64,000 bases of DNA, taken from contig CALRDH010000002.1 of NCBI GenBank assembly GCA_943354835.1, forward strand, positions 42,270 through 106,269, in the 5' to 3' direction. The position numbers were made by a program, and so were the translations under genes. A model generated the notes under the pieces. That model ran no database searches. It worked only from the letters and a program-made list of their open reading frames with translations, and was not told the DNA's origin. The DNA is from a candidate division WWE3 bacterium. Its GTDB lineage: Bacteria > Patescibacteriota > WWE3 > 2-01-FULL-39-13. Position 1 is the first letter of the stretch. Each line of letters begins with the position of its first letter. Below, one piece after another: positions 8,377 to 36,752 of the stretch.

Positions 8377-8453
8377 GGCCCCGTCGTCTAGCGGTCTAGG
8401 ACATCTGGTTTTCATCCAGAAGATCGCGGGTTCGATTCCCGCCGGGGTCACCA
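8377..8453 (+). tRNA. tRNA-Glu (anticodon TTC)
   Basis: The anticodon arm is tctgg-tTTTCAt-ccaga and the T-loop is GGGTTCGATTCCCGC. It ends in A-CCA at 8450-8453, and its last 9 nt start the island's direct repeat. Confidence 0.85.
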
Positions 8454-9961
8454 AACGAGACATTATCATCTCCAAAGTGCGAAATGTATTGATATAAAGG
8501 GCTAATATGCTGGTTCGAATAGCCTGGATAGCCCCATACCATTCCTGAGGGGAATATCGAACCAAGAAGCACTTTGATCTGGGTAACATTTGATTCCTGA
8601 TATGTTTTTCCAAGATCTGAAAACTTTGCTCTCATAAATTCCACTACGCTTTGGATATTGTATTTGTTCACAAGCTCGTCGTCTTTGGTCATACGAACAG
8701 ATGCTACTTGTTCTTCAATAAGCTTATTTTGCTCCTTAAATACTTCATCACTGTACACACCACTCAAGTTTTTTTGTATTAATGCCTGTCTCATTTCGTA
8801 TAGACGACTCAAATCTACTTCAGCTCGTTCTTTACGAGATTTTAGGTCACTCACTCTCTTATAATAGGTAGTCCTCATCATAGCCAAAAAGGCGTTCAAA
8901 CATTGTTCTGTTGGTGATATTGCTCGTAAATGCTCCACGGTTGAATAATCCATCTCATAGGCTTTAATTGATGGTTCGCCACATCTTTTTCTACAAAAAT
9001 AATATGCATGCTTGTTTTTTCTTCCAGAGCTCCATCCTCCAGTCATGGGCGTACCACATTTCCCACATTTTACGATTCGTCTCAAAGGAAAATCTGGATT
9101 ATTTTGTAGTCTTCTGGGAACAATTGGCAAGTTAGCGCATTTATATCTTCCTGAAATAATATTTTGAACTCTATAAAACATTTCTTCTGTAATCATTGGC
9201 ACATGCTGACCCTTGACCTCTTCTGGATATTTTTCAGAAGTAATGATTCCTGCATAAAACTTATTTTTAAACATTCTACTAAGTGCCTGCATTATTATTT
9301 GATACCGCTTCCCTTTTATAACTTGTCTAACACCACAGGTATTTAAATACTCTGCAACTTCCTTCAATGTAGATTTGCCTGATGCCATCAACTCCCATCC
9401 TCTGCGAACGCTATCCCAATTTTCTGGATCTTTTGTGGCATACCCATCTTTAGAAATGTAGCCAAGTGGTGGTCTACTCGTGCTCAATCCAGACAAGAAC
9501 CGAGCCCGCATGCCGTTTTTGGTTCTCTCGCTTCGAACATCATTATCAAGTTGTGCAAAACCAGCCAGTATTGTTTCTACCAATTTTTCAGTAGGACTAT
9601 CACCAGTCGGTTCAGTTGCAGAGATAAGTGTAATATCGCATTCTGCTAGTTTTTTTCTAATTCCTAAGTAATCAGCTGTTTGCCTAGAAATTCTATCGAG
9701 TCGATAGACAATTACTGCATCAACAGATTTTTTATTCTTTCTGCAATATTCAAGCATTTCAATCAAGACAGGTCTTCCCGTAATGGTCTTTGCTGATTTA
9801 CCCTCTTCACGAAAGGTTTTATTTATTTGGATCCCCCTTCTTTCTGCCTCTTTTGTACAGATCTCCAACTGCGTATCCAATGAAAAATTATCTACCTGTT
9901 CCTCAGTAGACACTCTTAAGTAAATAACTGCTGAGTTTATACTTTTCGGTTCATTCATCAT
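8396..9961 (-). CDS. large serine recombinase (resolvase/invertase catalytic domain, recombinase domain, zinc ribbon)
   Basis: N-terminal AVIYLRVSTEEQ with the catalytic Ser. Also contains RLDRISR and the C-terminal zinc ribbon CGKCGT...CRKRC. The ORF runs through attL into tRNA-Glu on the opposite strand. Confidence 0.85.
   Translation of the reverse strand: MMNEPKSINSAVIYLRVSTEEQVDNFSLDTQLEICTKEAERRGIQINKTFREEGKSAKTITGRPVLIEMLEYCRKNKKSVDAVIVYRLDRISRQTADYLGIRKKLAECDITLISATEPTGDSPTEKLVETILAGFAQLDNDVRSERTKNGMRARFLSGLSTSRPPLGYISKDGYATKDPENWDSVRRGWELMASGKSTLKEVAEYLNTCGVRQVIKGKRYQIIMQALSRMFKNKFYAGIITSEKYPEEVKGQHVPMITEEMFYRVQNIISGRYKCANLPIVPRRLQNNPDFPLRRIVKCGKCGTPMTGGWSSGRKNKHAYYFCRKRCGEPSIKAYEMDYSTVEHLRAISPTEQCLNAFLAMMRTTYYKRVSDLKSRKERAEVDLSRLYEMRQALIQKNLSGVYSDEVFKEQNKLIEEQVASVRMTKDDELVNKYNIQSVVEFMRAKFSDLGKTYQESNVTQIKVLLGSIFPSGMVWGYPGYSNQHISPLYQYISHFGDDNVSFGDPGGNRTRDLLDENQMS
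8445..8531. repeat. attL-like direct repeat: the tRNA-Glu 3' end plus 78 bp
   Basis: The 87 bp are repeated at 36666-36752 with a single mismatch (8497 a versus c). Confidence 0.85.
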
Positions 9962-9963
9962 GT

Positions 9964-10272
9964 TTATTTTCCTTTCAATAAATTTTGTAATGTCATTCCA
10001 CCAAATATTTCCTTTTCAAATTGATCCAACCAAGCATCAATTAAAAATTGAAAATCACTCGTCATGCTCTGGATTTGGTCTTCAGAAAGATGCTCATTAA
10101 GTTCTCCTAAATTCCTGCGGTTTTTCTCAACTTGCGTAACTACTGATTGGATTGGAAAGAGCTTGTCTAGTTGAGAAATTGGTGAACTGATATAGTCTAT
10201 AGATGGATCTTCAACCAATAGTGAGTCAGGAATAGTTGAGGTTTGAAGTTGTGCTGATCTTAAGTATTCCAT
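9964..10272 (-). CDS. hypothetical protein directly upstream of the recombinase; possible directionality or regulatory factor
   Basis: A 102-aa acidic ORF, 2 bp upstream of the recombinase on the same strand. Confidence 0.35.
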   Translation of the reverse strand: MEYLRSAQLQTSTIPDSLLVEDPSIDYISSPISQLDKLFPIQSVVTQVEKNRRNLGELNEHLSEDQIQSMTSDFQFLIDAWLDQFEKEIFGGMTLQNLLKGK

Positions 10273-10365
10273 ATTTATTAACTATATCGATAGAGATAGT
10301 ATATATCCATATCGAGATAGTTGTCAAGTGATTTTTAAGCATAAATCAAAAGGATAATTTGTGTA

Positions 10366-10491
10366 TTTCCCTTTCATTCTTTGACCTAGTTTGTTATACT
10401 CCAAGCAACTATTTTTGCTGGTATATATGGAGTTTTCTTTGTTTTGGCAAACATATTTAGCAAACCCTGACCCACTCATTCTCTTTGGCAT
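10366..10491. repeat. 126-bp direct repeat, copy 1, carrying a truncated copy of the T4CP promoter and 5' end
   Basis: About 93% identical to 11672-11797. It encodes a YMEFSLFWQTYLANPDPLILFG remnant (ORF 10391-10633). Confidence 0.85.
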
Positions 10492-10548
10492 TTGTAAAAG
10501 AAAAATCGTCTCAGATTCTGCCATTTTAGCCCCCGAGCTGTTTCCTCT

Positions 10549-11022
10549 TTGGGCTCGGTTTCTTTCAAGTTGCCAAATTACAGGGTTTTCTATGCTAAAA
10601 TGCTTCGTTATATGGAAATTGAAGATCTACTAGAATCGGGAGATTATTATCGACAAGCGGAGGAGTTCATGCAGAACGTTAACTTATTGGGAACAGAGGA
10701 CGTTCCAGAAGGAATCACAGTGAATGCCTCTGACTTAACCAATGATTTGCTGAATTTTTTGCCTCGTGCTTCGGATGATTTTAAAAAGCAGGGATTACAT
10801 GAAGAAGCAGATGTAATGAGAGTAGCTGATGAGTCACTAAATAGAAAGAATCCAGGTCAACGAAATATTTCCGTTACTATTAGTGGTGGAGAAGAAATAG
10901 CTCGTTGGCAAGTATTTGCTCGAATAAATGACCTCGCAAAAGGATACAGAACTTTTGAAAGAAAGCTATCATATCTAACTTCTGAACAAAGCATATTTAG
11001 AAAATTTAATTTTAGAGATTGA
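10549..11022 (+). CDS. hypothetical protein
   Basis: A 157-aa ORF between the duplicated segments. No recognizable motif. Confidence 0.35.
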   Translation: MGSVSFKLPNYRVFYAKMLRYMEIEDLLESGDYYRQAEEFMQNVNLLGTEDVPEGITVNASDLTNDLLNFLPRASDDFKKQGLHEEADVMRVADESLNRKNPGQRNISVTISGGEEIARWQVFARINDLAKGYRTFERKLSYLTSEQSIFRKFNFRD

Positions 11023-11124
11023 AGTGTTTCAACTAATTATTGGCTAACTTAACAAACACTATCAAAAATTTATTCACCCAAACACAGCTTTACTAAGTGT
11101 TGGTTATACACCTTACCTAACTCA

Positions 11125-11358
11125 TTATTTGTAAAAATCCAAGTAAGAAAGAAGTATTAAAAAGTCATCAAAAAACATAGGACCCTCACACATTCTTTTT
11201 CTTGCTTCCTCACACTTCAAATTAATAGAAATCGTTGAATAACTACTAAAGCAAGCACATCCATCGATGGGTGCATATTTAAAACTACCAGGTGTTAAAT
11301 TCATCCAACCAATCAAGAGTAGAAAAAGTGCAATAATTAAATATGATACATTTTTCAT
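11125..11358 (-). CDS. small secreted Cys-containing peptide (paralog of 11362-11598)
   Basis: An MKN... signal peptide followed by a Cys-containing mature part. Confidence 0.4.
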   Translation of the reverse strand: MKNVSYLIIALFLLLIGWMNLTPGSFKYAPIDGCACFSSYSTISINLKCEEARKRMCEGPMFFDDFLILLSYLDFYK

Positions 11359-11361
11359 AAT

Positions 11362-11598
11362 TTAAAAAAGTAAAATACCTAAAAATAAAACATAATGACC
11401 CTCTTCGCAGTTTACAACCCATCTTCCAAATGGTGCCCACATTACTTGGTAGTCGCAACCCGTCCCACCTTCGTCTGTGCCAATAACACTGTACTGATCA
11501 GTGACTAAAGCATAGTTAGAATCTCTATCCATCCAGGGAGCCCATGCAAACACTATCAAAAACATTAGGGCAACAATTTTAATTACTTTATTTTTCAT
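11362..11598 (-). CDS. small secreted Cys-containing peptide (paralog of 11125-11358)
   Basis: Has a signal peptide. It has the same architecture as its neighbour and sits in tandem with it. Confidence 0.4.
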   Translation of the reverse strand: MKNKVIKIVALMFLIVFAWAPWMDRDSNYALVTDQYSVIGTDEGGTGCDYQVMWAPFGRWVVNCEEGHYVLFLGILLF

Positions 11599-11671
11599 TA
11601 CTGCTAATTATAATGGTCCTGTTGTATAAATCAAAGTTTAAATGTTTGTCGCGTGTGTAATTAAGAAAGCT

Positions 11672-11797
11672 TTTCCCTTTCATTCTTTGACCTACTTTGT
11701 TATACTCCTAGCAACTATTTTTGCTGGTATATATGGAGTTTTCTTACTTTTGGCAAACATATTTAACAAACCCTGACCCACTCATTCTCTTTGGCAT
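11672..11797. repeat. 126-bp direct repeat, copy 2 (the functional T4CP promoter and start)
   Basis: It matches 10366-10491. It contains TTGACC and an extended -10 (TGtTATACT). Confidence 0.85.
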
Positions 11798-14351
11798 ATT
11801 GGGAAGTATTTTCGTGTCTCTTATCCTTGTATTTACAGCGTTAGCGACTGTTGCAATTCTTCTCAAGATCAAGCGTACTCGAAGACTGCTAGAAACACCG
11901 CACACCTACCTTGAGGTAAAACCAACTGATAGAACTCTTAAAACAACACTTACCAACACGAAGCTTTTTGAAATTTTGCACTCTCTGGAAAAACCCTACA
12001 CTTGGTGGGATAAGCTATTGGGTTTTACTAAGCCTGTAAGCTACGAGCTTGTTTCAAGCAAGTACGAGGGTATTCGCTTTATTCTTCGGATTGCTACAGA
12101 AGACGCTTCAAGTATTAAAAAAACACTACTCGCATATCTACCTGGCATAGAGATTAAAAAAACAGACGACTACCTACCTAGTACTACCGACAAACCATAC
12201 GCAATTGAAGAACTAACCCTGAGTAATTCTTTTATTTATCCACTTTCAGAACAGCCACAATTACAGCAGTATGACCCGCTTGCGTATCTGACAGGGTACC
12301 TTACTAAGCTCAACGACTCAGAGCTTATTGCCCTGCAATTTATTTGTACTCCTGTACACACAGCAACGCACAAAAAAATCCTCCAGAAGATTGCAGATCT
12401 ACAGAAAAAAATCCTAAGTAACGAAAGTGCAGATCACATTCTTTCGAAGCATACAGGCTCAGACATCATCAGCTTGCTTGGAAGACTTCTGGCTTTTATC
12501 ATCCTCACCCCTGTAACACTGCTTTCTTGGGTTCTTGGTAACACAAGGCAAGTATTTCCAACTTGGCTTTTTGAAGCACCAATCACCAAACCACTACAAT
12601 CTGGACAAGCAAAAAATGACCTATTGCAAACGATATCCACTAAAATTAATCAGCCACTTTTTGAAGTCACCATTCGTGTGTACATCCAATCGGACACAAA
12701 ACCACAAGAACGATTCAAGGGTATTCTTGCGTCATTTGAATCCTTTGCCACACCGCACCAAACAATATATAGAAAGAAGACAGTCTTTACCTATATTCAC
12801 ACTCCACTGTTGCAAAAATTGCAGTATTTTCTTTTGCAAAACCGCCTGTCACTTTTCTCAAGCCCACTATTTTTATCCGCACTGGAATTAGCAGGTTTGT
12901 ATCATCTACCTCATGTGCTCAACACCAAAACTGAAGACTTACTGCAAGTCAAAAGCCCAAAACTTCCAGCGCCACTGTCTCTTAAAAAAAACAGATCAGA
13001 ATTTGACATATCGTTTGCCACAAATTCGTATGGAGAAACAATCACCCCAATTGGCGTGACTCTCGAGGAGCGTAGGCGACACACCTATATCATTGGTGCA
13101 ACAGGTACAGGTAAAACCACACTTTTATTACAGATGATTTACCAAGATATATGCAAGGGCAATGGTCTAGCAGTTATTGATCCACATGGAGACTTAGCAG
13201 AGCGGTTGATTGGAGTTATTCCAGAAGAGCGCGTCAAAGATGTTGTCTACTTTAACCCCTACGATATTGAATTTCCCATTGGTCTTAATGTACTTGAGAT
13301 TCCAGAAGGGCTTTCAGAAGTCGAGCTACAGCGAGAAAAGGACTTTATTACCTCAACACTCATATCTATCTTTCATAAACTGTATGACGCACGATATTCT
13401 GGGCCAAGAATGGAACACATCTTGCGCAATGTAATTTTAACGGCACTCGAGCAAGATAAGCCAACACTTTTTACTATCTATGATCTCTTAACCAACATGA
13501 ACTATCGCAAGCAGGTAACAAGCAAACTTACCGATGAAGTTCTGAAATCGTTCTGGAAAAATGAGTTTGAAAAGCTTGGTAGTTTTCAAAAGGCAGAGCA
13601 AATCTCACCTATCACCAATAAACTTGGCAGGTTTTTAACAACCAGCATGACGCGCAATATCTTGAACCAGAGCGAGAGCAAACTTGATTTTGAAGACATT
13701 ATGAATAACAAAAAGATCTTGATTTGCAACCTCTCAAAAGGAAAAATAGGAGAAGACACAGCCTACTTCCTTGGCGGGCTTTTTACTGCCAAAATACAGC
13801 TGACAGCACTAAGAAGAGTACATATAAAAGAATCAGAACGCCCAGACTTTTTCTTGTATATCGATGAGTTTCAGAATTTTGCCACCATGTCGTTTGCTCA
13901 AATTCTATCTGAGGCACGAAAGTATCGATTAAGCGTTATTCTGGCACATCAAAACACGGTACAGATTGAGCCTGACTTACTGGAAACAATTATCGGAAAT
14001 ACTGGTACGCTGATATGCTTTAGAACCACAAGTCCAAAAGATGAGGTCAAACTACTTCCAGTGTTTGCGCCAGAAGTTGAGATAGGGCAGATCCCAAACC
14101 TACCCTCATACAACTTTTATATGAAGATCAATGCGCTCCAACCTCAGGCAACCTTTAGTGGAGAGATTGAAAACTTTGTGATTGCAGATACTGAGCAAAT
14201 AAGGGCAGAAGTAATGACTCACTCACAGCAAACCTATGGAAACGAACGATCAACAATTACTCTTTCAAAGGAAACACAGAAAGAGAAAAAGACCCAAAAG
14301 ACTGTAAAAGAAGCTCCGAGTACTGAGAACTTTTTCGAGCAGGTGAAATAG
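11721..14351 (+). CDS. type IV secretion coupling protein-like ATPase (VirD4/TraG/TraD family, TraG-D_C type)
   Basis: N-terminal TM helix. Walker A IIGATGTGKTT, VIDPHGDL, Walker B FFLYIDEFQNF, and ARKYRLSVILAHQN. 876 aa. Confidence 0.75.
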   Translation: MLVYMEFSYFWQTYLTNPDPLILFGILGSIFVSLILVFTALATVAILLKIKRTRRLLETPHTYLEVKPTDRTLKTTLTNTKLFEILHSLEKPYTWWDKLLGFTKPVSYELVSSKYEGIRFILRIATEDASSIKKTLLAYLPGIEIKKTDDYLPSTTDKPYAIEELTLSNSFIYPLSEQPQLQQYDPLAYLTGYLTKLNDSELIALQFICTPVHTATHKKILQKIADLQKKILSNESADHILSKHTGSDIISLLGRLLAFIILTPVTLLSWVLGNTRQVFPTWLFEAPITKPLQSGQAKNDLLQTISTKINQPLFEVTIRVYIQSDTKPQERFKGILASFESFATPHQTIYRKKTVFTYIHTPLLQKLQYFLLQNRLSLFSSPLFLSALELAGLYHLPHVLNTKTEDLLQVKSPKLPAPLSLKKNRSEFDISFATNSYGETITPIGVTLEERRRHTYIIGATGTGKTTLLLQMIYQDICKGNGLAVIDPHGDLAERLIGVIPEERVKDVVYFNPYDIEFPIGLNVLEIPEGLSEVELQREKDFITSTLISIFHKLYDARYSGPRMEHILRNVILTALEQDKPTLFTIYDLLTNMNYRKQVTSKLTDEVLKSFWKNEFEKLGSFQKAEQISPITNKLGRFLTTSMTRNILNQSESKLDFEDIMNNKKILICNLSKGKIGEDTAYFLGGLFTAKIQLTALRRVHIKESERPDFFLYIDEFQNFATMSFAQILSEARKYRLSVILAHQNTVQIEPDLLETIIGNTGTLICFRTTSPKDEVKLLPVFAPEVEIGQIPNLPSYNFYMKINALQPQATFSGEIENFVIADTEQIRAEVMTHSQQTYGNERSTITLSKETQKEKKTQKTVKEAPSTENFFEQVK

Positions 14352-14364
14352 ATTAAAATAAGTA

Positions 14365-15640: not shown

Positions 15641-15647
15641 AAAATAT

Positions 15648-18606: not shown

Positions 18607-18640
18607 CTCCTTTAAGGGAATAAATTAATAACTACTACCT

Positions 18641-26211: not shown

Positions 26212-29022
26212 TTAAGCATAAGCAAATATTTGTTCTGTAAATTGTAAAATTTCTCGTTGCATATGTTTATCAAATAACCCTAAAAATCCATTTTCATGAA
26301 TTTTGGTGAATGGCTCTTGTACGAGGTCTTTTTTATTGAGTGCTCCATTCTCGATGATAAAGGTTTGCAAAGTAGTCAAAAACTGAATTTGCTTTGCAGT
26401 AAGGGTGTTATGTGTTGCAATAAATGTTGCAAAAGCTTCTGTGACTTTTTCAGGAAAAGTTACAAGTTCACCAATCCCCATGATGTATTTAATAAGATCA
26501 AGAAAGCCAACTTTTCTAGCATCATACGCTTTTTGTAAGTTTTCTTCTGTAGGATACGGATCGTATTCAGACAGTGCTTCTGCAAGATCTTCAATTTCTT
26601 CTGCAGTTATACTTTCTCCCTGTTTAATTTTCTGTAGTGTTTCATTTTCTTCTTCTAGTTTTTTGACAAGAGCCTCAACTTTTTCTCTATATTTTTGAAT
26701 GGTGATTCTTTCATTAGAAGGACCAAACTTGATGTACATTTTTTCTGAAGTGACATCTTTTAAGTTGAAAGAGTCTTGCTTTGGCTTAATTCCCTCGTCT
26801 CGATACTTCATGAGAGGACATATCTTCTCGATGACTATATTTAGTTCATCTTCACCAGCGTTTGATAGATATCCTCCGTTTAGTATGGCCTCAATTAACG
26901 CTTCTTGCTTTGCAACGATATTAACGGTTAGTGGAAGGTCAGAGACTATTTCAATCAGTGCTTCTCCTGTTGTTGCAAGCTTCTTCTCATCCCTTTCATC
27001 TCCTTGCAACTTGATGATAGAGTAGCGAATCACTTTTATCTCAAAACTCATTGCTTTGTAGTCTTCACCTGTTCGAGTTCTCATTAGTGGCGCAATCTCC
27101 TTGAGAAGGAAATCTTTTTTATCTTGAGTGAGTCGTTGCCAAAAAGATTCATTTACTTGCGCAAGGAGTTCTTTATTGTCCAAAATAACTACATTATTTT
27201 GTGGAAGTTTTGCAATTTCTTGCTGTAATTTTGCAATACAATCAGCAACGACTGCTTCATTTCCTACATTTTGTGCAAGCTCAAGTTTTTCAAGTCGTGC
27301 TTCAAAAAGTCGTACTGGCATAGGTTTTGTAGGTCTATCAATCTTCCCCGTTGGATTCATCTGAAAGTATTCAAAATTCTCCCAGCAGTCCATGATTAAA
27401 AACTTATCCTTTTTCTTGCACCAAGGTTTGATTTTCTTAGCTTCAAGTAAGCGTGTGCCACGTCCAATCATTTGCCAAAACTTTGTATACGAAAAAACAG
27501 GCTTAGCAAACACCAGATTCACAAGCTCTCGAATATCAATGCCTGTATCAAGCATGTCTACGCTTATGGCAATTCTTGGAAAATCATTATTTATAAATTG
27601 ATCAAGCAAACCACCCTTGCCATAAACCCTAGAATCATCCGACACAATTACTTTGGCTAAATTTCCCTTATGTTCTGGGTACAGATCATCAAAAACTTCT
27701 TGCAATCTTCTGGCATGTTTCATGGTCATAGCAAAAAAGATTGATTTTCCCGGTAATGTACCGCTTTCATCCTTGATAGATTCTTCCATGAATTCTTGTA
27801 CTATAAGAGCGTTTGTTCCTTTGTTTGTTACCTTTTTTTCAATATCCGTACCCTCATAATTAATTTCCTCTGGTTCTTTGCCATCAGCTAATAATTTTTG
27901 TTGTTCCCCAACAGAAATATTATCTTTACGAATACCTTCTTTTTGAAATTTTGTTCTTATCTTCAAAACTTCGTAATCACTAAGATATGGGGGGATATTA
28001 TTTATAGCTTCCTCGTAGGAGTAAGCAAAAGTAGGCAATCCATCCTCACATTCAAAAAGCCCAAAAGTATTATGTTCTACTGCATCTTTAGGAGTAGCTG
28101 TTAATCCTAGCTGTATGGAATCAAAATAATCAAATATGTTTTTATATACATTGTAGATCGATCTGTGACTTTCATCGGCAATTATTAGATCAAAGAAGTG
28201 GGGGCTTAATGGACAATCTTCTTTCTCAATAATATTGAGCATTGTTGGATATGTCGCGGAGTAAACTCGTCTATCGGTTTGAATATCAGTCTCACCAATT
28301 TTTGGCCAGATTGGTGCATTAGGTAAATACTCTTTAAACGCATCTAGTGCCTGATTGCGAAGAGCAATTCTATCGACTAAAAATAATACTTTTTGAATTC
28401 TATTTGCTCGCATCAGCACATCAATCATCGACACGGCGGTTCTTGTCTTACCAGTACCCGTAGCCATTACTAAAAGAGCTTTCCTTTTGCCTTTATCTAA
28501 GGTCTCAAATACTGATCTAATTGCCTCAATTTGATACGGTCGTCCAGAAATCTCTCTATTAATTAGTTCTTGAGATAATGGCTTTTCATTTTTTCTTTGA
28601 AAAAGAAGTCTTTCTAAATCTTTTTTACTTGGAAAGCCATGAACTTTTCTAGGTGGCGACTTTTCTGTATCCCAAAAGTAAATGTCATGTCCATTCGTAT
28701 AAAAAACAAACGGCATTTCTTTACCAGAATTTTTTTGAATATTAACTGCGTACTGTTTAGCTTGTTCTTGACCAACTCGAGCATCTCTAGAAGTCTTTTT
28801 TGCTTCTACTACTGCAAGAGGATACCCATCATCACCTAGTAGAACATAATCTGCATACTGAAACCCTTGGTGTTCATGTTCTGGCTCAGTAATACCTTCA
28901 GGCAAACCTACCCAAATATCCAACTCTGAAGTTACCTGTGAAGGATTACCAATGTCCCAACCAGCTTTTAACAGCCGTTTATCAATTATTTCTTGTCTTG
29001 TTTTTGCTTCTGTAGGACTCAT
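26212..29022 (-). CDS. hsdR: Type I restriction enzyme R subunit HsdR
   Basis: Walker A LLVMATGTGKT, the DEAH-box IIADESHRS, helicase C motifs, 936 aa. Confidence 0.85.
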   Translation of the reverse strand: MSPTEAKTRQEIIDKRLLKAGWDIGNPSQVTSELDIWVGLPEGITEPEHEHQGFQYADYVLLGDDGYPLAVVEAKKTSRDARVGQEQAKQYAVNIQKNSGKEMPFVFYTNGHDIYFWDTEKSPPRKVHGFPSKKDLERLLFQRKNEKPLSQELINREISGRPYQIEAIRSVFETLDKGKRKALLVMATGTGKTRTAVSMIDVLMRANRIQKVLFLVDRIALRNQALDAFKEYLPNAPIWPKIGETDIQTDRRVYSATYPTMLNIIEKEDCPLSPHFFDLIIADESHRSIYNVYKNIFDYFDSIQLGLTATPKDAVEHNTFGLFECEDGLPTFAYSYEEAINNIPPYLSDYEVLKIRTKFQKEGIRKDNISVGEQQKLLADGKEPEEINYEGTDIEKKVTNKGTNALIVQEFMEESIKDESGTLPGKSIFFAMTMKHARRLQEVFDDLYPEHKGNLAKVIVSDDSRVYGKGGLLDQFINNDFPRIAISVDMLDTGIDIRELVNLVFAKPVFSYTKFWQMIGRGTRLLEAKKIKPWCKKKDKFLIMDCWENFEYFQMNPTGKIDRPTKPMPVRLFEARLEKLELAQNVGNEAVVADCIAKLQQEIAKLPQNNVVILDNKELLAQVNESFWQRLTQDKKDFLLKEIAPLMRTRTGEDYKAMSFEIKVIRYSIIKLQGDERDEKKLATTGEALIEIVSDLPLTVNIVAKQEALIEAILNGGYLSNAGEDELNIVIEKICPLMKYRDEGIKPKQDSFNLKDVTSEKMYIKFGPSNERITIQKYREKVEALVKKLEEENETLQKIKQGESITAEEIEDLAEALSEYDPYPTEENLQKAYDARKVGFLDLIKYIMGIGELVTFPEKVTEAFATFIATHNTLTAKQIQFLTTLQTFIIENGALNKKDLVQEPFTKIHENGFLGLFDKHMQREILQFTEQIFAYA

Positions 29023-29173
29023 ATGTAGGATTAGATACTAAATCACTCAATTTGCACAACTATATTTTACCGTAAATATCATCAAATACCTCAGGGTATT
29101 CTTGTTACACTCGGCTCAAAGCTGATTTTACTCCTAAAATCTATATATTAGCTAGTGAATCAACAAATTATGG

Positions 29174-29202
29174 TTGACATAAAGATATTCAGTTTATATA
29201 AT
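29174..29202 (+). promoter_or_regulatory. consensus sigma70-type promoter (TTGACA, 17 nt, TATAAT) upstream of the T4SS operon
   Basis: TTGACA at 29174-29179, a 17-nt spacer, and TATAAT at 29197-29202, 58 nt before the pilin-like gene. Confidence 0.6.
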
Positions 29203-29259
29203 TCGATCACTTTATAGTATTTCGTTATAAGTTTCCCTACCCAGAGAAAAATAAAATAT

Positions 29260-29544
29260 ATGGGCAACAATATTCCAGGATACGACAGCGCGCAACCTAT
29301 TCAGTTCGCCAACTTAGACAGTCTGCTATGGGGTGTTGTAAAAACTCTCCAGTATTTTTCACTTCCAGTTATGGCTCTTTCAATTGCAGCACTTGGCATT
29401 GCGTTAATCGCTAGTGGTGATGACACAGAGAGAAAATCCAGACTCAAAGGATGGATATTTAATATATTGATTGGTGGTCTTTTAGTCTTTGGGTCAGCCA
29501 GTATAGCAAGTATTCTTAAACAATTTGTTGGTGGCACAAACTAA
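29260..29544 (+). CDS. VirB2/TrbC pilin-like small membrane protein
   Basis: A 94-aa protein with two hydrophobic helices. It is the first gene of the VirB4 operon. Confidence 0.45.
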   Translation: MGNNIPGYDSAQPIQFANLDSLLWGVVKTLQYFSLPVMALSIAALGIALIASGDDTERKSRLKGWIFNILIGGLLVFGSASIASILKQFVGGTN

Positions 29545-29573
29545 AAAGACTAACATTCGTAATTGTTAGCTTT

Positions 29574-31316
29574 ATGAAACATTTGATACTAGTATGCACG
29601 ATCATACTCATATCGATTTTCTTAGCACCGCCTGCCTCTGCACAAGAAGATCAAGAAAACTCAGACCCTGACCCTCAAATCACTTGGACTAATGAGTTTG
29701 CTGTAGAAGACGACTCATCCAGTGTTATTTCCTTACTTAAAAACTTTGTAAATGGCTTTGATTCACTCCTTGGTGGCTTTATCTTCTATACACCAGATCC
29801 ACTGGCAGAAACTATCACGCTCAAAGACGGCTCGGCAATCCCTGGAGTCACACACTACAGAAATATTTTTTATCAGATCGCTATTCCTATACTTGCCATC
29901 ATTATTTCGTTTATCGCCATCACCAAAATAGGTTCTGACAACACCTATGAGCTCAAGTCATTTGCTGTGCGACTACTGATGGTCGTTGTGCTGTTTTTGA
30001 CTGTTCCGCATGCACTTTCCTACTCTGTGCAGTTTAATAACTTGCTTGTTACTAAAATCTCAGAAACACAGCAGTTTACTGGCTTTCTAGATGACTACTT
30101 CGAAAAATCCCAAGAAAGAATAGATGCCAATGAAAGTTCTGAAAAATTTGGTATTCCTTCTTTTGACATCGCCCTTCGTGGCGGGATTTTTAAATCACTC
30201 GGTAAGTTTATTGTGCAGGTCTTTTTATTTGCCATCACCTTTTTATTTCTCCTATGTGGGTTTTTGTATCTAGGCTTTCAATTTGTCATTCGTTTTTCAA
30301 CCCTACTGTTTTTAGGAGTGATTTACCCCATTGTGATTCCGTTTGCTCTTGCAGAAAGAACACAATCCATTGTCCAAACCTTTTTCAAAACTTGGTTCAC
30401 CTTTCTGATACAACAACCTGCCTTTGTGCTTGGTTTTGCTATCGCAACAGATATTTTCAGAAGTATTTTAGAATCTCAGGGACCAAGTGTTGGTATGTTG
30501 TTTTTCTACACTGGTTTTTTGTTTTTCCTTGGTGGAGTAAACATGTTGGTGGCTCGCATATTTGGTGATGCCTGGTCTGCTATGTCAAATAACATGATGG
30601 CCGCTGTCTCATCACGAAGCATAATGTCGCCAGTTTCTTCAAGTATTGGTGACTTCAAAAAAGGTGTGACTGGAAGCAAAAGTTTTAGTACTGCCCTGGG
30701 TAACCAGATACGCAATCGATTTTTGACCAAACAATCTACCTCAGAGTTTAACAACTTATCAAACACTGAAAACAAAAACTATACCGCAAACAATGCGGGG
30801 AGTGAGTATAAGGTGCAAACAGCTACAGAACCTCAAGCTCCGTTTTCACAAAAACTTACGCACAAAGGATTTGCCGTTCAAGCAGAAAATTCCAAACAAG
30901 GAATAGTTTCTGTTTCTGGTACTGCATACAAGCACGATGGTGCTCAGGGGTTATCTACATACTACCCAACAATGATAGAAGCCGTTCAAGACGGAGTGCC
31001 ACAAGACAAGCTTAAGCAAGTTGAGTTTGATCATGAAAAATTTATTGATCTTTCTAGTTTTAATAAACTGCATCCCAATCCGCATAACTTCAACGCCATG
31101 CAAGAGGCAAAAAAACAAGGCAAAGAGATCGACTACGCCTATATCAAGGAATCAAGTCCAGTCCACAAAGTACGGCAATTCTTGGAACTTTCAGAAAACC
31201 GCAATCAAGCATTTGGAGTCAAAGGGGTAATAGTAGAACGACACGCCAAAAAAGGCACAGATCCAGTTATCAGGCTGTATACCAAAAAATCATATGAGAA
31301 ACATACGAATATATAA
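29574..31316 (+). CDS. VirB6/TrbL/TcpH-like polytopic membrane protein with a C-terminal extension
   Basis: A signal peptide, at least 6 TM helices in the first 350 aa, and a soluble roughly 230-aa tail. It sits upstream of VirB3-like and VirB4. Confidence 0.5.
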   Translation: MKHLILVCTIILISIFLAPPASAQEDQENSDPDPQITWTNEFAVEDDSSSVISLLKNFVNGFDSLLGGFIFYTPDPLAETITLKDGSAIPGVTHYRNIFYQIAIPILAIIISFIAITKIGSDNTYELKSFAVRLLMVVVLFLTVPHALSYSVQFNNLLVTKISETQQFTGFLDDYFEKSQERIDANESSEKFGIPSFDIALRGGIFKSLGKFIVQVFLFAITFLFLLCGFLYLGFQFVIRFSTLLFLGVIYPIVIPFALAERTQSIVQTFFKTWFTFLIQQPAFVLGFAIATDIFRSILESQGPSVGMLFFYTGFLFFLGGVNMLVARIFGDAWSAMSNNMMAAVSSRSIMSPVSSSIGDFKKGVTGSKSFSTALGNQIRNRFLTKQSTSEFNNLSNTENKNYTANNAGSEYKVQTATEPQAPFSQKLTHKGFAVQAENSKQGIVSVSGTAYKHDGAQGLSTYYPTMIEAVQDGVPQDKLKQVEFDHEKFIDLSSFNKLHPNPHNFNAMQEAKKQGKEIDYAYIKESSPVHKVRQFLELSENRNQAFGVKGVIVERHAKKGTDPVIRLYTKKSYEKHTNI

Positions 31317-32103
31317 AGACGACATACGAACACATATCTTGCGGAGCCTATTTTTTACCGATACGGCTATCGTTTCTGCTGGCATTGTTTTTATATCGGT
31401 TGGCATTTACCTTATTTTTGTCTACGGCTTTCATTTTTTCGATTGGGGGTATTATCTCTCAACACTCTTTGTTGCCATCATCTTTTTTATTGCATTTGTC
31501 AGTCAGAAAATCGACAACCAACCAATTTTTAAAATTGTCCCACGAGCAACTACTTTTTCGACATCTACAAAAGAACTGCGGGTAACAAATATAGATCCGT
31601 ACTTTACTGATTTTCATATTCAAGATGATCTGATTGTCCGCAAAGACAAACTTATTCGAGTCTATGAAATCGAGCCATTCGATATTGCGCTACTCAACGA
31701 ACAAGACCGTGAGCACTTTTTTATTAGACTAAAACAGGCTATTCATGTACTACCAGCGCAAACACAGTTTATTGTGCGAAAGGTACCAGCAAAAAGTAGT
31801 GACTACTCAAAGCACTTCTTTTCTCTCTATGATGATTCGTCTTCTGATCGAGAATCACTCGTGCATGAATATATTGAGAATCTAACCAAACTTGTTGATA
31901 CCAGTTCATTTTTTATTACCAAACACTTTGCAGTACTTTCAGTAAGCTGTACAACACACAAACCACAAGCAGTTGTTGAGGGGGTAAAAAAACTAAACGA
32001 TAGTAGCTCACGACTTACTGCATCTTTGGTAGTGTGCAATATTTCTACAAAACCCGTGATTAATGAAGAGTTGAAACAATTTGTTAGGAGTATTTTACGA
32101 TGA
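31294..32103 (+). CDS. VirB3-like / small T4SS membrane component
   Basis: Two adjacent TM helices near the N-terminus. Its stop overlaps the VirB4 start. Confidence 0.35.
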   Translation: MRNIRIYKDDIRTHILRSLFFTDTAIVSAGIVFISVGIYLIFVYGFHFFDWGYYLSTLFVAIIFFIAFVSQKIDNQPIFKIVPRATTFSTSTKELRVTNIDPYFTDFHIQDDLIVRKDKLIRVYEIEPFDIALLNEQDREHFFIRLKQAIHVLPAQTQFIVRKVPAKSSDYSKHFFSLYDDSSSDRESLVHEYIENLTKLVDTSSFFITKHFAVLSVSCTTHKPQAVVEGVKKLNDSSSRLTASLVVCNISTKPVINEELKQFVRSILR

Positions 32104-34202
32104 TCAAACATTCTATAAAAACCAGCATGCGCACACTACTACAAAATATTCGGAACTTTAGTCTCACCTTTACACTAAAAGATCAAGTTGACTCTCTTAG
32201 CCACGAAAGAGATGTCTATACCGAAGAATTGATTGCTATAAAAAAAGAAACAGACCTACTTAAAACTCGAAATGAGGGTTTAAAGAAACTCGAAGAACAA
32301 GTATTGCAGTCTGCACAATCTACAACAGAAAAGGCACTCAAGGAAGAAATTAAACGACTTATGGAAGTGGTGTCATCTCAGGCTGAAACAATAGAAAAAC
32401 AGCCATTTTTAGGCCATACAGTAGCTAAGATTGCCAAGCCAACACAAGCAAAAAGCAGAACTCCACTTGGGTTTATAAAAAGCTACTTTGCCTTTAAAAA
32501 GGAGCTTAAAGCTTATGAGAAAAAAATCTTGCATGATGCAAAAGAGAAATTTCACTTAGTAGTTGAGAAACGAGATGAAACTATACACATTGATAGAGCA
32601 ACTGAAAGTTCATATAAAAGTGAATATATTGTTGAACACAGTAATTATCTTGATGTGAATGGCAAAGTTAAACGGTTATATTACCTTGCCGATATTCCAG
32701 CGTACCTCAGTCCCTATGTATTTTTCCGTCTTCTGACTTCTTCATTGCCATTTACACTCAGTATTTTTATTGAACCTGCCTCAAGTACTGAACTGCTCAA
32801 AAAGGCACGACAAAGATTGTCTGTTCTTGAAATGCAACAGAATGAAAGACTCAGATCTGGAAAAATACGAGACCAACAAATTGATAAAAATATTGATGAA
32901 GTCATGAGTTTTATAGATGAACTAGTGCACGAGGCAGAAAAAGGTATTGTCTATTCCCTCTATCTACAACTTGAAGCAGATACGCCAAAAGAACTAGAGG
33001 CACTACATAAAGAGCTTCAAAATATTGCGGGAAGCATGGATTTAACATTCAATCAATACACCTTTGGTCAAAAACAAGCGTTCAAAAACTTTTTACCATT
33101 TGCTCAAGATCATGTGCAGGAAAATAGAATTTTACAATCAACTGCAGTCTCATACTTAATGCCGTTTGTTTCAAAACATCTGAATGACCCTGACGGTATA
33201 TTTATGGGGCTGAATGCTTATAACGACTCGCTCATATTTATGGATCCGTTCACCTCAAGGAATAATAATATCAACATCTTTGGTGTATCTGGATCGGGGA
33301 AAAGTGTGACTTCAAAAGTATTGATGAACAGACTGTATATGAGAGGTGTCCAAATTTTAGCAATTGATCCAGAAGGCGAATATGTAAACCTTGCAAAATC
33401 GCTCGGTGGAGAGGTGATTCAGTTTTCCAGAGAAAATGGTATCAATCCTTTTCATATCAACAGCACCAGAGAAAACGATATTCTCGATCACATCTCGACA
33501 CTCAAAACATTCTTTAAGTTTTTTATTCCTCAAGATCACTACGATGGAGCTGTGCTTGATGAACATTTAATTACACTCTATGACTCTAGTACACCAAACT
33601 TTGAAAACTTACTAGAACTATTGGGCACACACCCTATGGCAAAAGATTTAAGCGTGTTGTCTACTGGAAGCTTGCGAGGAATATTTAATTCAAAGCGAAA
33701 ACTAGAACTAGATAATAATTTCATTGTTTTTGATCTGCATGACCTCAAAAAAGACGAGAAGCGTGAGCCTGCCATGTACCTTTTGACTTCACTTATCTGG
33801 AATCTGATCAATATACAAAATGGCAAAAAGCGCATGCTTTTTATTGATGAAGCCCACAAACTACTCGTTGATCCAGAGGTTGCAGTTTTCTATAGAGAAC
33901 TAGTCAAGCAAGCACGAAAAAGAAACACGGGAGTTGTCTCAATTACTCAGGATGTTGAGGACTTTTTACATAACGACTACGGCAAGGCGATTATCACAAA
34001 CTCTGAAACTAAGATTTTGCTAAAACAATCCTATGCTGCATTATCTGAAATAGGGACAATCTACCCTATGACTGATGAAGAAAAGCAACAACTCGGGCAT
34101 CTGGGCATTGGTGAAGTAATTCTTTTTAGAGAAGCAGAGCACCTACGACTCAATACGATTGTACTTCCATTTGAGAAACCACTTGTTTTTACCAGTGATT
34201 AA
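32100..34202 (+). CDS. virB4: VirB4/TrbE/TcpF-family type IV secretion ATPase
   Basis: Walker A IFGVSGSGKSVT, AIDPEGEY, Walker B LFIDEAHKLL, and ITQD. 700 aa. Confidence 0.85.
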   Translation: MIKHSIKTSMRTLLQNIRNFSLTFTLKDQVDSLSHERDVYTEELIAIKKETDLLKTRNEGLKKLEEQVLQSAQSTTEKALKEEIKRLMEVVSSQAETIEKQPFLGHTVAKIAKPTQAKSRTPLGFIKSYFAFKKELKAYEKKILHDAKEKFHLVVEKRDETIHIDRATESSYKSEYIVEHSNYLDVNGKVKRLYYLADIPAYLSPYVFFRLLTSSLPFTLSIFIEPASSTELLKKARQRLSVLEMQQNERLRSGKIRDQQIDKNIDEVMSFIDELVHEAEKGIVYSLYLQLEADTPKELEALHKELQNIAGSMDLTFNQYTFGQKQAFKNFLPFAQDHVQENRILQSTAVSYLMPFVSKHLNDPDGIFMGLNAYNDSLIFMDPFTSRNNNINIFGVSGSGKSVTSKVLMNRLYMRGVQILAIDPEGEYVNLAKSLGGEVIQFSRENGINPFHINSTRENDILDHISTLKTFFKFFIPQDHYDGAVLDEHLITLYDSSTPNFENLLELLGTHPMAKDLSVLSTGSLRGIFNSKRKLELDNNFIVFDLHDLKKDEKREPAMYLLTSLIWNLINIQNGKKRMLFIDEAHKLLVDPEVAVFYRELVKQARKRNTGVVSITQDVEDFLHNDYGKAIITNSETKILLKQSYAALSEIGTIYPMTDEEKQQLGHLGIGEVILFREAEHLRLNTIVLPFEKPLVFTSD

Positions 34203-34208
34203 TACAGT

Positions 34209-34976
34209 ATGAAAGCACTCGGTTACGCACATGCTTTTAAAAAGCTCAAAGAAGACCCATTCGGAGTTGCTGTTGATGCTCTGATTACTGTTGTGGTGCA
34301 TATATTTTCGCCACTTCCTATACCCGGCGCACTTGTGGCGCAGTTTAAAGTTCCTATTCTTGGATTTTTAGCGTCTCTAGCTATTTTATTCTTCTTCATG
34401 ATTATGCTTGTTGGTACAGTTTTTATGTCGCCACTGATTGTCAGCTCTGGATACTGGACAGAATTTATTTCACATTTTCAGGATCAAGAGGGAGAATATC
34501 AATCTGATTCTGGATTTACTCAAACACAAATTCCAAAACAAAGCCCACTCGGAGGATCAGGGATGAATTTTGTCACAGTAACTGCTTATTTTTTAGATCC
34601 AAGTTATTATCTGCAATTTGGAAGAAATCATACAGGTATTGATCTTGTTCCATCAGATTCTTACTATCAAAATAGCCAAGCATACAAAGACACGGGTGAA
34701 GTAGTAACCTTTGCAACAATTAATGGAAATGTCCGCTACTACATTGACCAATATGGCGGGAATACCGTTGAAATCACTAGTGATAACGGCTCAATTCAAG
34801 TACTTTACATCCATTTTAGTAGAGTTTTGGTTCAATCTGGTAAGGTAACGGCGGGCACTCCGATTGGAATTATGGGAGATACGGGTAATGCGACAGGTGA
34901 ACATGTACACTATGAAGTACGCACTAAAAATGGTAATAACTGGCAGGCGGTAAATCCGTTAAACTATATAGAGTAA
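34209..34976 (+). CDS. M23/LytM peptidoglycan endopeptidase; T4SS-associated cell-wall hydrolase
   Basis: HTGIDL, and GTPIGIMGDTGNATGEHVHYEV with the HxH zinc site. It has an N-terminal TM region. Confidence 0.8.
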   Translation: MKALGYAHAFKKLKEDPFGVAVDALITVVVHIFSPLPIPGALVAQFKVPILGFLASLAILFFFMIMLVGTVFMSPLIVSSGYWTEFISHFQDQEGEYQSDSGFTQTQIPKQSPLGGSGMNFVTVTAYFLDPSYYLQFGRNHTGIDLVPSDSYYQNSQAYKDTGEVVTFATINGNVRYYIDQYGGNTVEITSDNGSIQVLYIHFSRVLVQSGKVTAGTPIGIMGDTGNATGEHVHYEVRTKNGNNWQAVNPLNYIE

Positions 34977-34977
34977 T

Positions 34978-35781
34978 ATGAAAAAAATAGAACTTAATCC
35001 ACTAGACTCAAATCAAAGAAGATTGCCACAACTTGGAGTTGTACTCGTACTTGGTATCTTTCTTGTGGGGTATTTTTTACTTCGAAAAAGTCCTACGCCA
35101 GAACCAACAACCAAAAACTATGCTGTGTATATCGAGGATTCGATTTTACATGCATTTGACGACACTATATCTATTGCAGAATATCCTAGTAGAGTCTCGG
35201 TACACTACCCATATGCGCTTGTAATTTTACCCAAAAAACAAAGCACTCAAATCTTCAACCTCAAAAATGCATCAAAAGAAAAATCTTTTAATGAAGCATT
35301 GCTAGATTATTCCGAAGGGAAAATCCTGAAAAATACTGGTAAAACAACATTTCTTGATGAACTAGACCTGCAAGTGCTGTGTGAAAAAGGGGTTATAAAA
35401 AGTGATATAGAAGTTTTGTGTCTAACTAAAGTAAATGCAAACACGGTAGAAAACAAACTTATCTCAATAACCATTCCAGATGCTAAACAAAAAGAAATCT
35501 ATGTTTCAAAAGATATCATAACCGACTTTTCAGTTGTAAACGACAAAATATATATCGGGGAAATAAATCTTCACAACAAGCAAAACTACTTAATTATTGA
35601 TGGTACAAAAGTAGAAGTTCCAAGTGTTGTTAGTTTCATCTATGAGCTAGGAGGAGAGCCGTACTATGCAACTCTGAAAGGTGCACTTAGTCAGGAAGAG
35701 AGCTGGTATAAGATTGAAAATAACACTGCAAATAAACTCGATGGTGAGAAAATTTTCCTTAGATATGCTCTAGAGAACTAA
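34978..35781 (+). CDS. bitopic membrane protein; possibly VirB8/TcpC-like
   Basis: A single N-terminal TM helix plus a roughly 230-aa beta-rich domain. The assignment rests on position only. Confidence 0.3.
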   Translation: MKKIELNPLDSNQRRLPQLGVVLVLGIFLVGYFLLRKSPTPEPTTKNYAVYIEDSILHAFDDTISIAEYPSRVSVHYPYALVILPKKQSTQIFNLKNASKEKSFNEALLDYSEGKILKNTGKTTFLDELDLQVLCEKGVIKSDIEVLCLTKVNANTVENKLISITIPDAKQKEIYVSKDIITDFSVVNDKIYIGEINLHNKQNYLIIDGTKVEVPSVVSFIYELGGEPYYATLKGALSQEESWYKIENNTANKLDGEKIFLRYALEN

Positions 35782-35846
35782 TTTGAGAGGTTTTTTATAC
35801 AAACTATCTCTAAAGGATGTATAATTGTAGTCAGAGGTAACTCTAT

Positions 35847-36059
35847 ATGGAATCAAAAAGTCAATTTGGGAAAATTCTCAAGTCTGCACGCCTTAAGTCA
35901 AAAATGACTCAAGCACAAGTTGCAGTAAAAGCAGACATAACAACAAATTACTATGCTCGTATCGAGCGGGGTGAAGTGAGTCCTACAGTTGAAGTTATTA
36001 ACTCAGTAGTGCAAGCTTTGGGAATAGAACTAAACTTCCCTCTTAAAAAGACTAAATAA
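35847..36059 (+). CDS. XRE-family HTH transcriptional regulator
   Basis: A 70-aa ORF. QAQVAVKADITTNYYARIERGE is an HTH_3 signature. Confidence 0.75.
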   Translation: MESKSQFGKILKSARLKSKMTQAQVAVKADITTNYYARIERGEVSPTVEVINSVVQALGIELNFPLKKTK

Positions 36060-36588
36060 ATTTTGAGTAATTCAAAAAATCTATCATTGATCTTGATTCT
36101 TTTGCATCATCAATTCTTCTCATGATTTCTAGACTATTTGTTTGAGATAAAATATTTAAGCTCCCCTCCCATAAGATTTTCTTATCGATAACTGATAGTT
36201 TTCTATGGTGAAAACCATTCAATAATACAAATTTAATACCCATATCCGAATACTTTAGAATTTCATCTGTTGCCTGATAACGATAGAACTCTGTCTCGTG
36301 CTCTGACGGTTCTCTCGTAATGATCTTAATTTTGATGTTTTTATGTAATAAACGTTGAAAGACTTGTTCAAATAATTCCATTCGAAGACTTGTAATGTAG
36401 GGACTTTCAATAATCACTTCACTTGAGCAAGATTCCAAGTCTTTCAAAAATTGCTTATAAAATGTCTTTTCATTAAATAAAACTGGTGCTTTAAAGAAGC
36501 TATGTTGGTTTATCATATAGTTAGTTAATAACCTCCTTTCTCTTCGGGAATGGTAAAGATCGCGAAGGCAGGGCCTCAGGTTTATCAT
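36052..36588 (-). CDS. PLD-family (HKD) nuclease, Nuc-like
   Basis: A single HKD motif, HHRKLSVIDKKILWEGSLN. 178 aa. Confidence 0.7.
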   Translation of the reverse strand: MINLRPCLRDLYHSRRERRLLTNYMINQHSFFKAPVLFNEKTFYKQFLKDLESCSSEVIIESPYITSLRMELFEQVFQRLLHKNIKIKIITREPSEHETEFYRYQATDEILKYSDMGIKFVLLNGFHHRKLSVIDKKILWEGSLNILSQTNSLEIMRRIDDAKESRSMIDFLNYSKFI

Positions 36589-36665
36589 TTTGATCTGAAT
36601 TGATCGGGTAAAATAGCATTAGTTTCTGAATCCAGCTCAAAAGTGGTTCGAAGGAAAGTGCATTA

Positions 36666-36752
36666 GGGTCACCAAACGAGACATTATCATCTCCAAAGTG
36701 CGAAATGTATTGATATAAAGGGCTAATCTGCTGGTTCGAATAGCCTGGATAG
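36666..36752. repeat. attR-like direct repeat (copy of the tRNA-Glu 3' end plus 78 bp)
   Basis: It matches 8445-8531 with one mismatch. It flanks the island at the opposite end from the intact tRNA. Confidence 0.85.

Follow-up and report, generated by a model that had tools for sequence, protein, structure and literature searches.

In fuselloviruses of the SSV1 type, the gene for an archaeal tyrosine integrase is split deeply by its own attP and is intact only when the element is excised. Serine recombinases are used by some conjugative elements of the mating-pair formation class FATA (MPF-FATA). An attP inside a gene is also reported for the mycobacteriophages BPs and Brujita (Broussard et al. 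2013), where it lies within the repressor gene, is acted on by a tyrosine integrase, and gives rise to a tail change that is functional. Among large serine recombinases (LSRs), the model for the LI integrase places the zinc-ribbon motif 5 bp further inward in attB than in attP (PMC3783163). The type IV secretion systems (T4SS) of Patescibacteria have been described as chromosomal, mostly relaxase-less, co-opted and probably not conjugative, in a report that does not mention recombinases or tRNA sites (PMC12102498), and in tycheposons new elements enter beside a tRNA gene and older material is pushed outward and decays (bioRxiv 10.1101/2020.12.28.424599). The locus described here lies in a window of 64,000 nucleotides, the whole stretch of DNA that was analysed, from a candidate division WWE3 bacterium (GenBank assembly GCA_943354835.1, contig CALRDH010000002.1, positions 42,270 to 106,269), in which an element of 28.2 kb, enclosed by 87-bp direct repeats, lies at the 3′ end of the gene for tRNA-Glu(UUC).

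The element, which extends from about 8454 to about 36665, is probably an integrative conjugative element inserted at tRNA-Glu by an LSR, and the 78-bp extension at its right end is probably the relic of a tandem or earlier copy. Its relatives were collected in a family scan with one genome per species, which found 267 of them, and 80 loci were fetched with 10-kb flanks; a VirB4-based metagenome scan gave 4 loci and a scan of viral contigs gave 3.

The direct repeats and the integrase gene

The target gene, tRNA-Glu(UUC), is located at 8377–8453 on the plus strand (ARAGORN; Rfam RF00005, 65 bits). The left copy of the repeat (8445–8531) and the right copy (36666–36752) align without a gap over 87 nt, 86 of which are identical by both alignment and a repeat finder, and similarity ends abruptly beyond both edges. 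A sequence-only reading of this DNA had proposed repeats of this length and position with one difference, leaving their edges to be checked by alignment; the pair and its exact edges are supported, but the sole mismatch (A at 8507, C at 36728) falls at repeat position 63 rather than 53. The first 9 nt of the left copy, GGGTCACCA, are the last 9 nt of the tRNA and form the attL core (8445–8453). This 9-mer has two occurrences in the window, both at the repeats, where 0.1 would be expected by chance. No third copy of the 87-mer occurs within the window, and the block is therefore not a repeat family of the kind that recurs at many unrelated loci, a case that the same reading had named as one that would speak against an attachment site. 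The sequence past the right copy runs, as it had noted, into the stop of a convergent DUF4143 gene, the stop codon lying 2 nt beyond the repeat.

The junction at 36752|36753 was found in separate assemblies, namely an ENA contig assembled at k = 141 and a Logan contig. Logan contigs stop at 8474 and 36698, as k = 31 predicts for an 87-bp repeat, and these ends are therefore uninformative on polymorphism. That circular and integrated forms of the element were wrongly joined during assembly would suit the breaking of Logan contigs by the repeats and the fragmentation of the ENA contigs, but this explanation is scarcely credible given that the junction shares no k-mer with the integrase context and that it is spanned by the k = 141 contig and by the Logan contig, which carries the C variant.

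The recombinase gene (9961–8396, minus strand; Pfam Resolvase, Recombinase and Zn_ribbon_recom) encodes 521 aa in its integrated form. Its resolvase domain (PF00239, E = 5.5e-33) covers residues 11–155 and has the conserved serine, with R16, V17 and S18 invariant in 120 integrase sequences, and it is accompanied by PF07508 and PF13408, the Recombinase domain and the zinc ribbon domain with its inserted coiled coil. The integrase profile matches the structures of the TP901-1, A118 and SPbeta integrases, the SPbeta alignment reaching residue 467, and the protein belongs to the LSR family by its domain content. The sequence-only reading had this gene abutting the left repeat, but the open reading frame (ORF) crosses the repeat entirely, from base 3 of codon 477 to base 2 of codon 506, and continues for 15 codons into the antisense strand of the tRNA (residues 507–521). 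The left copy is thus composed of the core and integrase codons 477–506 (the P′ arm), and the integrase codons GDP are the antisense of the tRNA acceptor end and CCA.

The repeat encodes (W)GYPGYSNQHISPLYQYISHFGDDNVSFGDP, which is conserved across 120 clusters of homologues with 55–87% identity, and the 78 nt that follow the tRNA are therefore DNA of the element, its P′ arm; in 68 loci they are conserved even at synonymous sites. This bears directly on the view that the whole 87 bp is an identity block shared by attB and attP, with tRNA-Glu and 78 bp of host DNA forming the host site. The geometry fits such a classic tRNA island, but the 78 nt encode integrase residues 477–506, which are conserved at eleven different tRNAs and in many hosts, and the right ends of three related elements (L095, L006 and L087) lack them, so that this view is very improbable. 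The proposal of an integrated element at the 3′ end of tRNA-Glu, with repeats marking its ends, therefore stands in the main, except that the 78 nt which it took for host attB shared with attP are the 3′ end of the integrase gene.

When the right end is joined to the left end in sequence, as would happen on excision, the integrase ORF is extended to 553 aa. The last 47 residues of this form, NALSFEPLLSWIQKLMLFYPINSDQNDKPEALPSRSLPFPKRKEVIN (507–553), are encoded at 36664–36524 with a stop codon at 36521–36523, and the stretch 36521–36665 on the minus strand holds both these detached codons and the P arm of the attachment site. By this reconstruction attP lies inside the integrase ORF, and integration swaps the native 47-residue tail for one encoded by the tRNA. 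The tail ORF is open and conserved at the right end of L095, a related element from a JGI metagenome, with 8 synonymous and 5 non-synonymous codon changes, and at the right end of L006 as well; similar tails are present in attP-form integrases on metagenome contigs (P0108/L093, 536 aa; P0011/L094, 546 aa). The integrated 521-aa form keeps every recognised domain. An ORF fusing the integrase to the adjacent PLD-family gene in the circle was considered and ruled out, as the frames differ and the integrase stop falls just before the PLD start.

Attachment sites across the family

The arrangement of integrase and tRNA gene is observed throughout the family. In 70 of the 80 loci the 3′ end of a convergent tRNA gene lies 4–7 nt before the end of integrase codon 505, with an exception in L056, where the distance is 19 nt; the other ten loci comprise five cut by contig ends, two with degenerate tRNA-like sequence and three with a different tail. 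Eleven target tRNA identities are represented (Glu, Arg, Asp, Ser, Phe, Gly, Leu, Lys, Pro, Ala and His), and the homologues of the integrase, like those of the left-flank gene, come from Patescibacteria. A C-terminal tail translated from a tRNA antisense strand is present in at least 105 of the 120 representative integrases; the motifs by which it can be recognised include G-x-R-T, which derives from the T arm, LDENQ, the product of the Glu anticodon loop, and LLKRELLYQLSY, which tRNA-Lys gives. Most of the deposited integrases (P0001–P0120) have C-terminal extensions of up to about 80 residues, which are translations of the tRNA antisense strand and beyond; they reflect the integrated state and are an artefact of annotation. 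In L053, L011 and L078, integrase genes whose tails are of the attP (non-tRNA) type also occur inside genome contigs, the L053 contig being 949 kb long; such genes may be tandem arrays or may have been inserted by another route. A homologue of a conserved 102-aa ORF (orf102) adjoins the integrase gene in 67 of the 80 loci, always on the element side, and a coupling protein (46/80) and a Replic_Relax protein (45/80) are likewise found on the element side and never on that of the tRNA. No description of this integrase family was found in the literature searched, which covered few subscription journals.

Canonical right ends are observed in related elements. L095 is 94.5% identical to window positions 29158–36676, over 7.5 kb, and this homology stops 2 nt past the core, after GGGTCACCAAA, where it gives way to unrelated DNA, which matches no integrase fragment and is not the DUF4143 flank; in its left part the cargo differs from that of the window element. 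L006, whose integrase is 74% identical and which also occupies tRNA-Glu, is a complete element of about 8.7 kb that has an 11-nt direct repeat, TGGTGACCCTA, and a B′ of non-integrase sequence. The right end of L087 consists of P arm, core and PLD gene, with no integrase fragment. As the right ends of all three lack the 78-nt stretch, the shared core is about 9–11 bp, GGGTCACCA(AA), in agreement with the earlier remark that 87 bp is too long for an LSR. No stretch other than GGGTCACCA is shared between the P arm, the tRNA and the right ends seen in related elements, and for this reason the crossover is presumed to have taken place within it. In L087, two right-end-type sites lie 2.3 kb apart (10985–13400 of that locus), each with core, P arm and PLD gene or fragment; the outer one is an older, degenerate copy, and the pair is direct evidence of element accretion at one site.

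The right end in the window differs from these. A truncated P′ follows the P arm and core, and this end is for that reason an attP-like P-O-P′ arrangement rather than a clean attR, its repeat copy being made up of the core (36666–36674) and a truncated 78-nt copy of the integrase 3′ end (36675–36752). A profile hidden Markov model of integrase residues 455–503 matches 36751–36674 with 40.7 bits, and the same profile, run over all loci, detects one other extra integrase fragment, in L024. A scan of the 80 loci for long direct repeats also found only L024, most far ends lying beyond the 10-kb flanks. At 4189–4290 of L024, a P arm and a core of the tRNA-Lys type, GGCTCACCA, are followed by a truncated integrase 3′ fragment, all of them 1.1 kb from the resident tRNA-Lys integrase, inverted relative to it, and next to a tRNA-Glu gene. 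The cuts in the L024 fragment and in that of the window lie no more than a few nt apart in position.

The two kinds of arm share a motif at different distances from the core. In the tRNA, the T-loop motif GGTTCGAT (8429–8436) is followed by 8 nt and then the core, and in the P arm of the window a T-loop-like GGTTCGAA (36645–36652) lies 13 nt from it. GGTTCGA(A/T), 13 nt and the core recur in the P arms of the window, L006, L093, L094 and L095, and the P arms of L087 and L024 have GTGTTCCA at the same 13-nt spacing, so that a spacer of 8 nt in the tRNA contrasts with one of 13 nt in seven P arms. These spacings match the 5-bp shift of the LI integrase (PMC3783163), and placing the site in the LI integrase register would put the crossover at about GGG-TC-ACCA. 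No conserved outer motif was found at the usual P′ distance in 68 loci, and the outer motif with its 5-bp shift is present in the P and B arms alone, not in P′ or B′. B′ is arbitrary host DNA. It may therefore be the P and B arms on which the integrase chiefly depends, and this would also explain entry next to any downstream sequence.

A second feature of this kind lies within the integrase ORF, where an inverted pair of T-loop-like motifs occupies 8512–8563 (GGTTCGAA at 8512–8519 on the plus strand, GGTTCGAT at 8563–8556 on the minus strand). The two motifs are 36 nt apart and span about 51 bp, as an LSR site does. At codon 483, AAC is used in 67 of 68 loci, compared with 36% AAC elsewhere in these genes; at codon 468, 67 of 68 loci have TCG or TCA; and codon 467 is NGT throughout, despite variation in the amino acid. 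The pair, conserved in this way at synonymous sites, is possibly an accessory integrase-binding or regulatory site. The 87-bp repeat ends 12 nt past the 8512–8519 motif, and its boundary stands in the same relation to this motif as the core does to the T-loop motif of the tRNA. A clean LSR exchange at the pseudo-site was considered as the source of the 8531 boundary and rejected, as the CACCA expected after the boundary is absent.

It may be asked whether the P′ copy is a working part of some elements. On such an account, exit would take place by RecA acting across the 87 bp or by an unusual integrase reaction, either of which would rebuild the 553-aa gene and leave a reusable landing pad of tRNA and 78 nt. 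The copy is 77/78 identical to the resident gene and retains the TTCGAAC motif that is conserved at synonymous sites, L024 has the same layout cut at nearly the same place, and the repeat boundary is where a pseudo-attB on the 8512–8519 motif would cross over. Set against these are the near-identical L095 element, which does without the copy, the absence of a copy from three of five right ends, and the lack of a clean LSR exchange signature at 36752|36753; a working P′ copy is on balance unlikely.

The history that appears probable instead is that of an inserted element beside the relic of another copy. The LSR would have inserted the element into the 3′ end of tRNA-Glu(UUC) by crossover within the 9–11-bp core GGGTCACCA(AA), reading the T-loop motif (GGTTCGA) and the 3′ strand of the acceptor stem as its B arm, and the matching P-arm motif set 5 bp further out. 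In the excised circle the integrase gene would encode 553 aa; on integration the last 47 codons would stay at the far end and the ORF would gain 15 tRNA-antisense codons, to give 521 aa. The place of host B′ DNA would be occupied by the 78-bp second copy of the integrase 3′ end (P′), which could have arisen by either of two routes. In the first, a tandem array formed, for example, by sister-chromosome exchange or homologous recombination would have lost its distal copy to a later deletion as far as codon 477; in the second, the element would have entered beside an integrase end left behind by a previous, almost identical one. By whichever route the copy arose, recombination between the two repeats would restore the 553-aa gene on the circle and leave tRNA-Glu and 78 nt in the chromosome. 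As to present-day mobility, which is putative, L095 has the same right half and a different flank, and relatives in attP form exist, but neither an empty site nor a circle was found for the window element.

Several observations weigh against this history. Exact-protein look-ups of both flank genes gave only occupied sites and no empty site for the window element, and no circular junction of it was recovered; it is for lack of these that we infer excision and the pre-integration state. An exact 34-mer over the remnant/DUF4143 junction had no match in JGI metagenome contigs. Well-studied LSRs do not carry out attP × attL-type events (PMC3783163), and entry beside a resident P′ arm would be such an event; the route through a tandem copy and a deletion avoids this problem but is ad hoc. 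Searches with the core and with the P arm found no second copy or older right end to the right of 36752. Finally, a P′ fragment is present at two of five chromosomal right ends, both cut just upstream of the same conserved motif, and this shared cut position hints at something less accidental than a random deletion.

Contents and flanks of the element

The G+C content is 36.9% inside the element and 33.5% outside it. At its left end, the ORF of 102 aa (orf102; 9964–10272, minus strand) immediately precedes the integrase gene; searches of Pfam, PHROG and NCBIfam gave no match for it, and it is a candidate directionality or accessory factor. A type IV coupling protein of the VirD4/TraD kind follows at 11721–14351 on the plus strand (Pfam TrwB_AAD_bind and TraG-D_C), with NCBIfam similarity below cut-off to CD1115-family VirD4-like proteins and TraD. 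In this region a direct repeat of 147 nt, 90% identical, is found at 10366–10512 and 11672–11818; it contains the start of a short ORF as well as a TTGACC/TATACT pair that resembles a promoter. One copy lies upstream of a 157-aa ORF and the other overlaps the start annotated for the coupling protein. A Replic_Relax protein (PF13814; 17014–17694, plus strand; PHROG: replication initiation protein) is a candidate relaxase or replication initiator. Its AlphaFold2 model, with a predicted local distance difference test score (pLDDT) of 92.8, has an N-terminal winged helix and an unassigned domain, and a fold search with it returned matches solely to winged-helix regulators. No canonical MOB relaxase was found among the genes of the element, which also counts against the conjugative reading. 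The DUF2958 and RadC-like JAB genes at 18280–19057 (minus strand) are of kinds that commonly accompany conjugative elements.

The cargo is encoded on the minus strand and consists of a Dsr1-like defence protein (19447–22794; PADLOC Dsr1, E = 1e-51, with a weak NCBIfam Dsr1 match) and a type I restriction-modification system (22766–29022). In the latter, hsdS (22766–23962) and hsdR (26212–29022) flank an hsdM gene in two fragments (23959–24441 and 25224–26273), which is interrupted by an IS1595-family insertion sequence (24502–25231) with a transposase ORF (24538–25218), 25-bp terminal inverted repeats and a TCCTGTT target duplication. The mating-pair formation module occupies 29260–35781 on the plus strand, where a VirB2/TrbC pilin (29260–29544) is followed by ORFs of 580 and 269 aa, the VirB4 ATPase (32100–34202), and an M23 peptidase (34209–34976) with a 267-aa ORF after it. 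VirB4 scores under the curated cut-offs, its nearest models being the CD1110 family and the VirB4 of Mycoplasma integrative conjugative elements (ICEs). The module is 94.5% identical in L095 and about 68% identical in L087. A helix-turn-helix (HTH) regulator (35847–36059, plus strand) and the PLD-family nuclease (36052–36516, minus strand) complete the right end.

These contents can be set against the possibility that the island is a fixed, domesticated chromosomal T4SS region of the kind proposed for Patescibacteria, with repeats that are dead scars. The T4SS of this phylum are reported to be chromosomal and mostly without relaxase (PMC12102498), and hsdM is broken by an insertion sequence. 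The ORFs of the integrase, orf102, the coupling protein and the T4SS, however, are all intact, the repeat copies differ by 1 nt, an element 94.5% identical has another flank and other cargo, and the detached tail of the integrase has kept a conserved, open reading frame; domestication is accordingly a distinctly improbable explanation.

To the right of the element, the AAA/DUF4143 gene (36755–37930, minus strand) is the PADLOC candidate defence gene PDC-S01. It opens a run of defence-type genes (36755–43483) that continues with a CPBP protease, a DUF4143 fragment (38885–39169), AbiEii and AbiEi (40730–42308) and a DUF2130 gene. No homologues of the right-flank genes were found on the element side in the 80 related loci, and these loci therefore give no support to the DUF4143 gene and its neighbours as remains of an earlier element. 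The defence-gene stretch fits tRNA-proximal accretion.

To the left, the closest strains (L085 and L086; 86–89% nucleotide identity in the left-flank gene) have no tRNA-Glu at this position, window position 8371 being joined to 5463, so that the DNA upstream of a TrmB-like gene joins the start of a DUF4153 gene directly. The empty site predicted by the sequence-only reading (tRNA-Glu, 78 bp, DUF4143) was not found in these strains, in which local synteny is different. Both breakpoints, 5463 and 8371, adjoin tRNA genes, and in L085 the TrmB stop is followed directly by a degenerate sequence that resembles a P arm; the junctions in L085 and L086 suggest an element-linked rearrangement of the flank. 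Upstream of tRNA-Lys (5373–5448), a second copy of the first 20 nt of this tRNA and a piece of its anticodon stem, GAGCACCTGCC, with a 44-nt insert between them, occupy 5267–5341 and are a pseudo-tRNA or the remnant of a rearrangement. The tRNA-Tyr of the window has a long variable arm, which marks the host as bacterial.

Significance and comparison with known systems

The island alone is an ordinary kind of object, and it is the family behind it that is worth follow-up. Tentatively, and against rather than with the odds, this family could be a previously undescribed, phylum-wide class of conjugative and mobilisable elements of Patescibacteria, with a retargetable integrase that reads the T loop, a direction switch rewired by integration, the motif pair in the ORF as a control site and Replic_Relax as the missing relaxase. 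If so, activity or stability would not be the same in the 553-aa form of the circle and the tRNA-tailed form, a difference that would constitute a built-in direction switch, and at least part of the T4SS repertoire of Patescibacteria would be conjugative. An attP inside the integrase gene would show integration state feeding back on the enzyme. LSRs are prized for genome engineering, but the sites that they choose are usually fixed and difficult to predict; a family settled on eleven kinds of tRNA through T-loop reading would, if this is true, amount to a natural retargeting experiment. The T4SS gene set between attachment sites, together with a near-identical copy elsewhere, makes conjugation in the candidate phyla radiation (CPR) directly testable, and hundreds of database integrases of this family carry spurious tRNA-antisense C-termini.

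The window integrase resembles phage-type LSRs (A118/LI, TP901-1, SPbeta SprA, phiC31 and Bxb1) in its resolvase and recombinase domains and its zinc ribbon with coiled coil, in its short core, and in an attB motif that is 5 bp nearer the centre than that of attP (PMC3783163). Unlike them, its family targets the 3′ ends of tRNA genes of eleven identities, with the T loop as the outer motif of the B arm, and has an attP in the integrase ORF, a conjugative carrier and no conserved outer motif in P′. An attP within the integrase ORF, a tRNA target and a gene intact only in the excised form are shared with SSV1, whereas the window enzyme is a bacterial serine recombinase that would lose its last 47 residues and keep its catalytic and DNA-binding domains; it is a functional analogue of the SSV1 type and not a member, the recombinase type being different. 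As in the integration-dependent immunity of BPs and Brujita, attP is inside a gene and integration alters the C-terminus of a protein, but here the gene is that of the integrase and any functional effect of the tail swap is conjectural.

The transfer genes are closest to those of MPF-FATA elements of monoderms (CTn2 and Tn5397 of Clostridioides, and Mycoplasma ICEs), with VirB4 nearest CD1110/Mbov_0397 and the coupling protein nearest CD1115, all below cut-offs, and are set apart from them by the host phylum, the tRNA target, a VirB2-like pilin, the absence of a recognised MOB relaxase and a conserved Replic_Relax protein. With the T4SS of PMC12102498 they share an MPF-FATA-related VirB4, a VirB2-like pilin, a coupling protein and the absence of a relaxase of MOBscan type; unlike these, the window genes lie between attachment sites next to an integrase. 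The defence genes of the right flank and the two right ends of L087 fit accretion as in tycheposons, which mostly have tyrosine recombinases and partial tRNA copies, whereas the relic in the window is a piece of an integrase gene. Finally, in a classic tRNA island whose att identity is long, the direct repeat would consist of the 3′ part of the tRNA as supplied by the element; the repeat here takes in no more than 9 nt of the tRNA, and its other 78 nt are integrase coding sequence.

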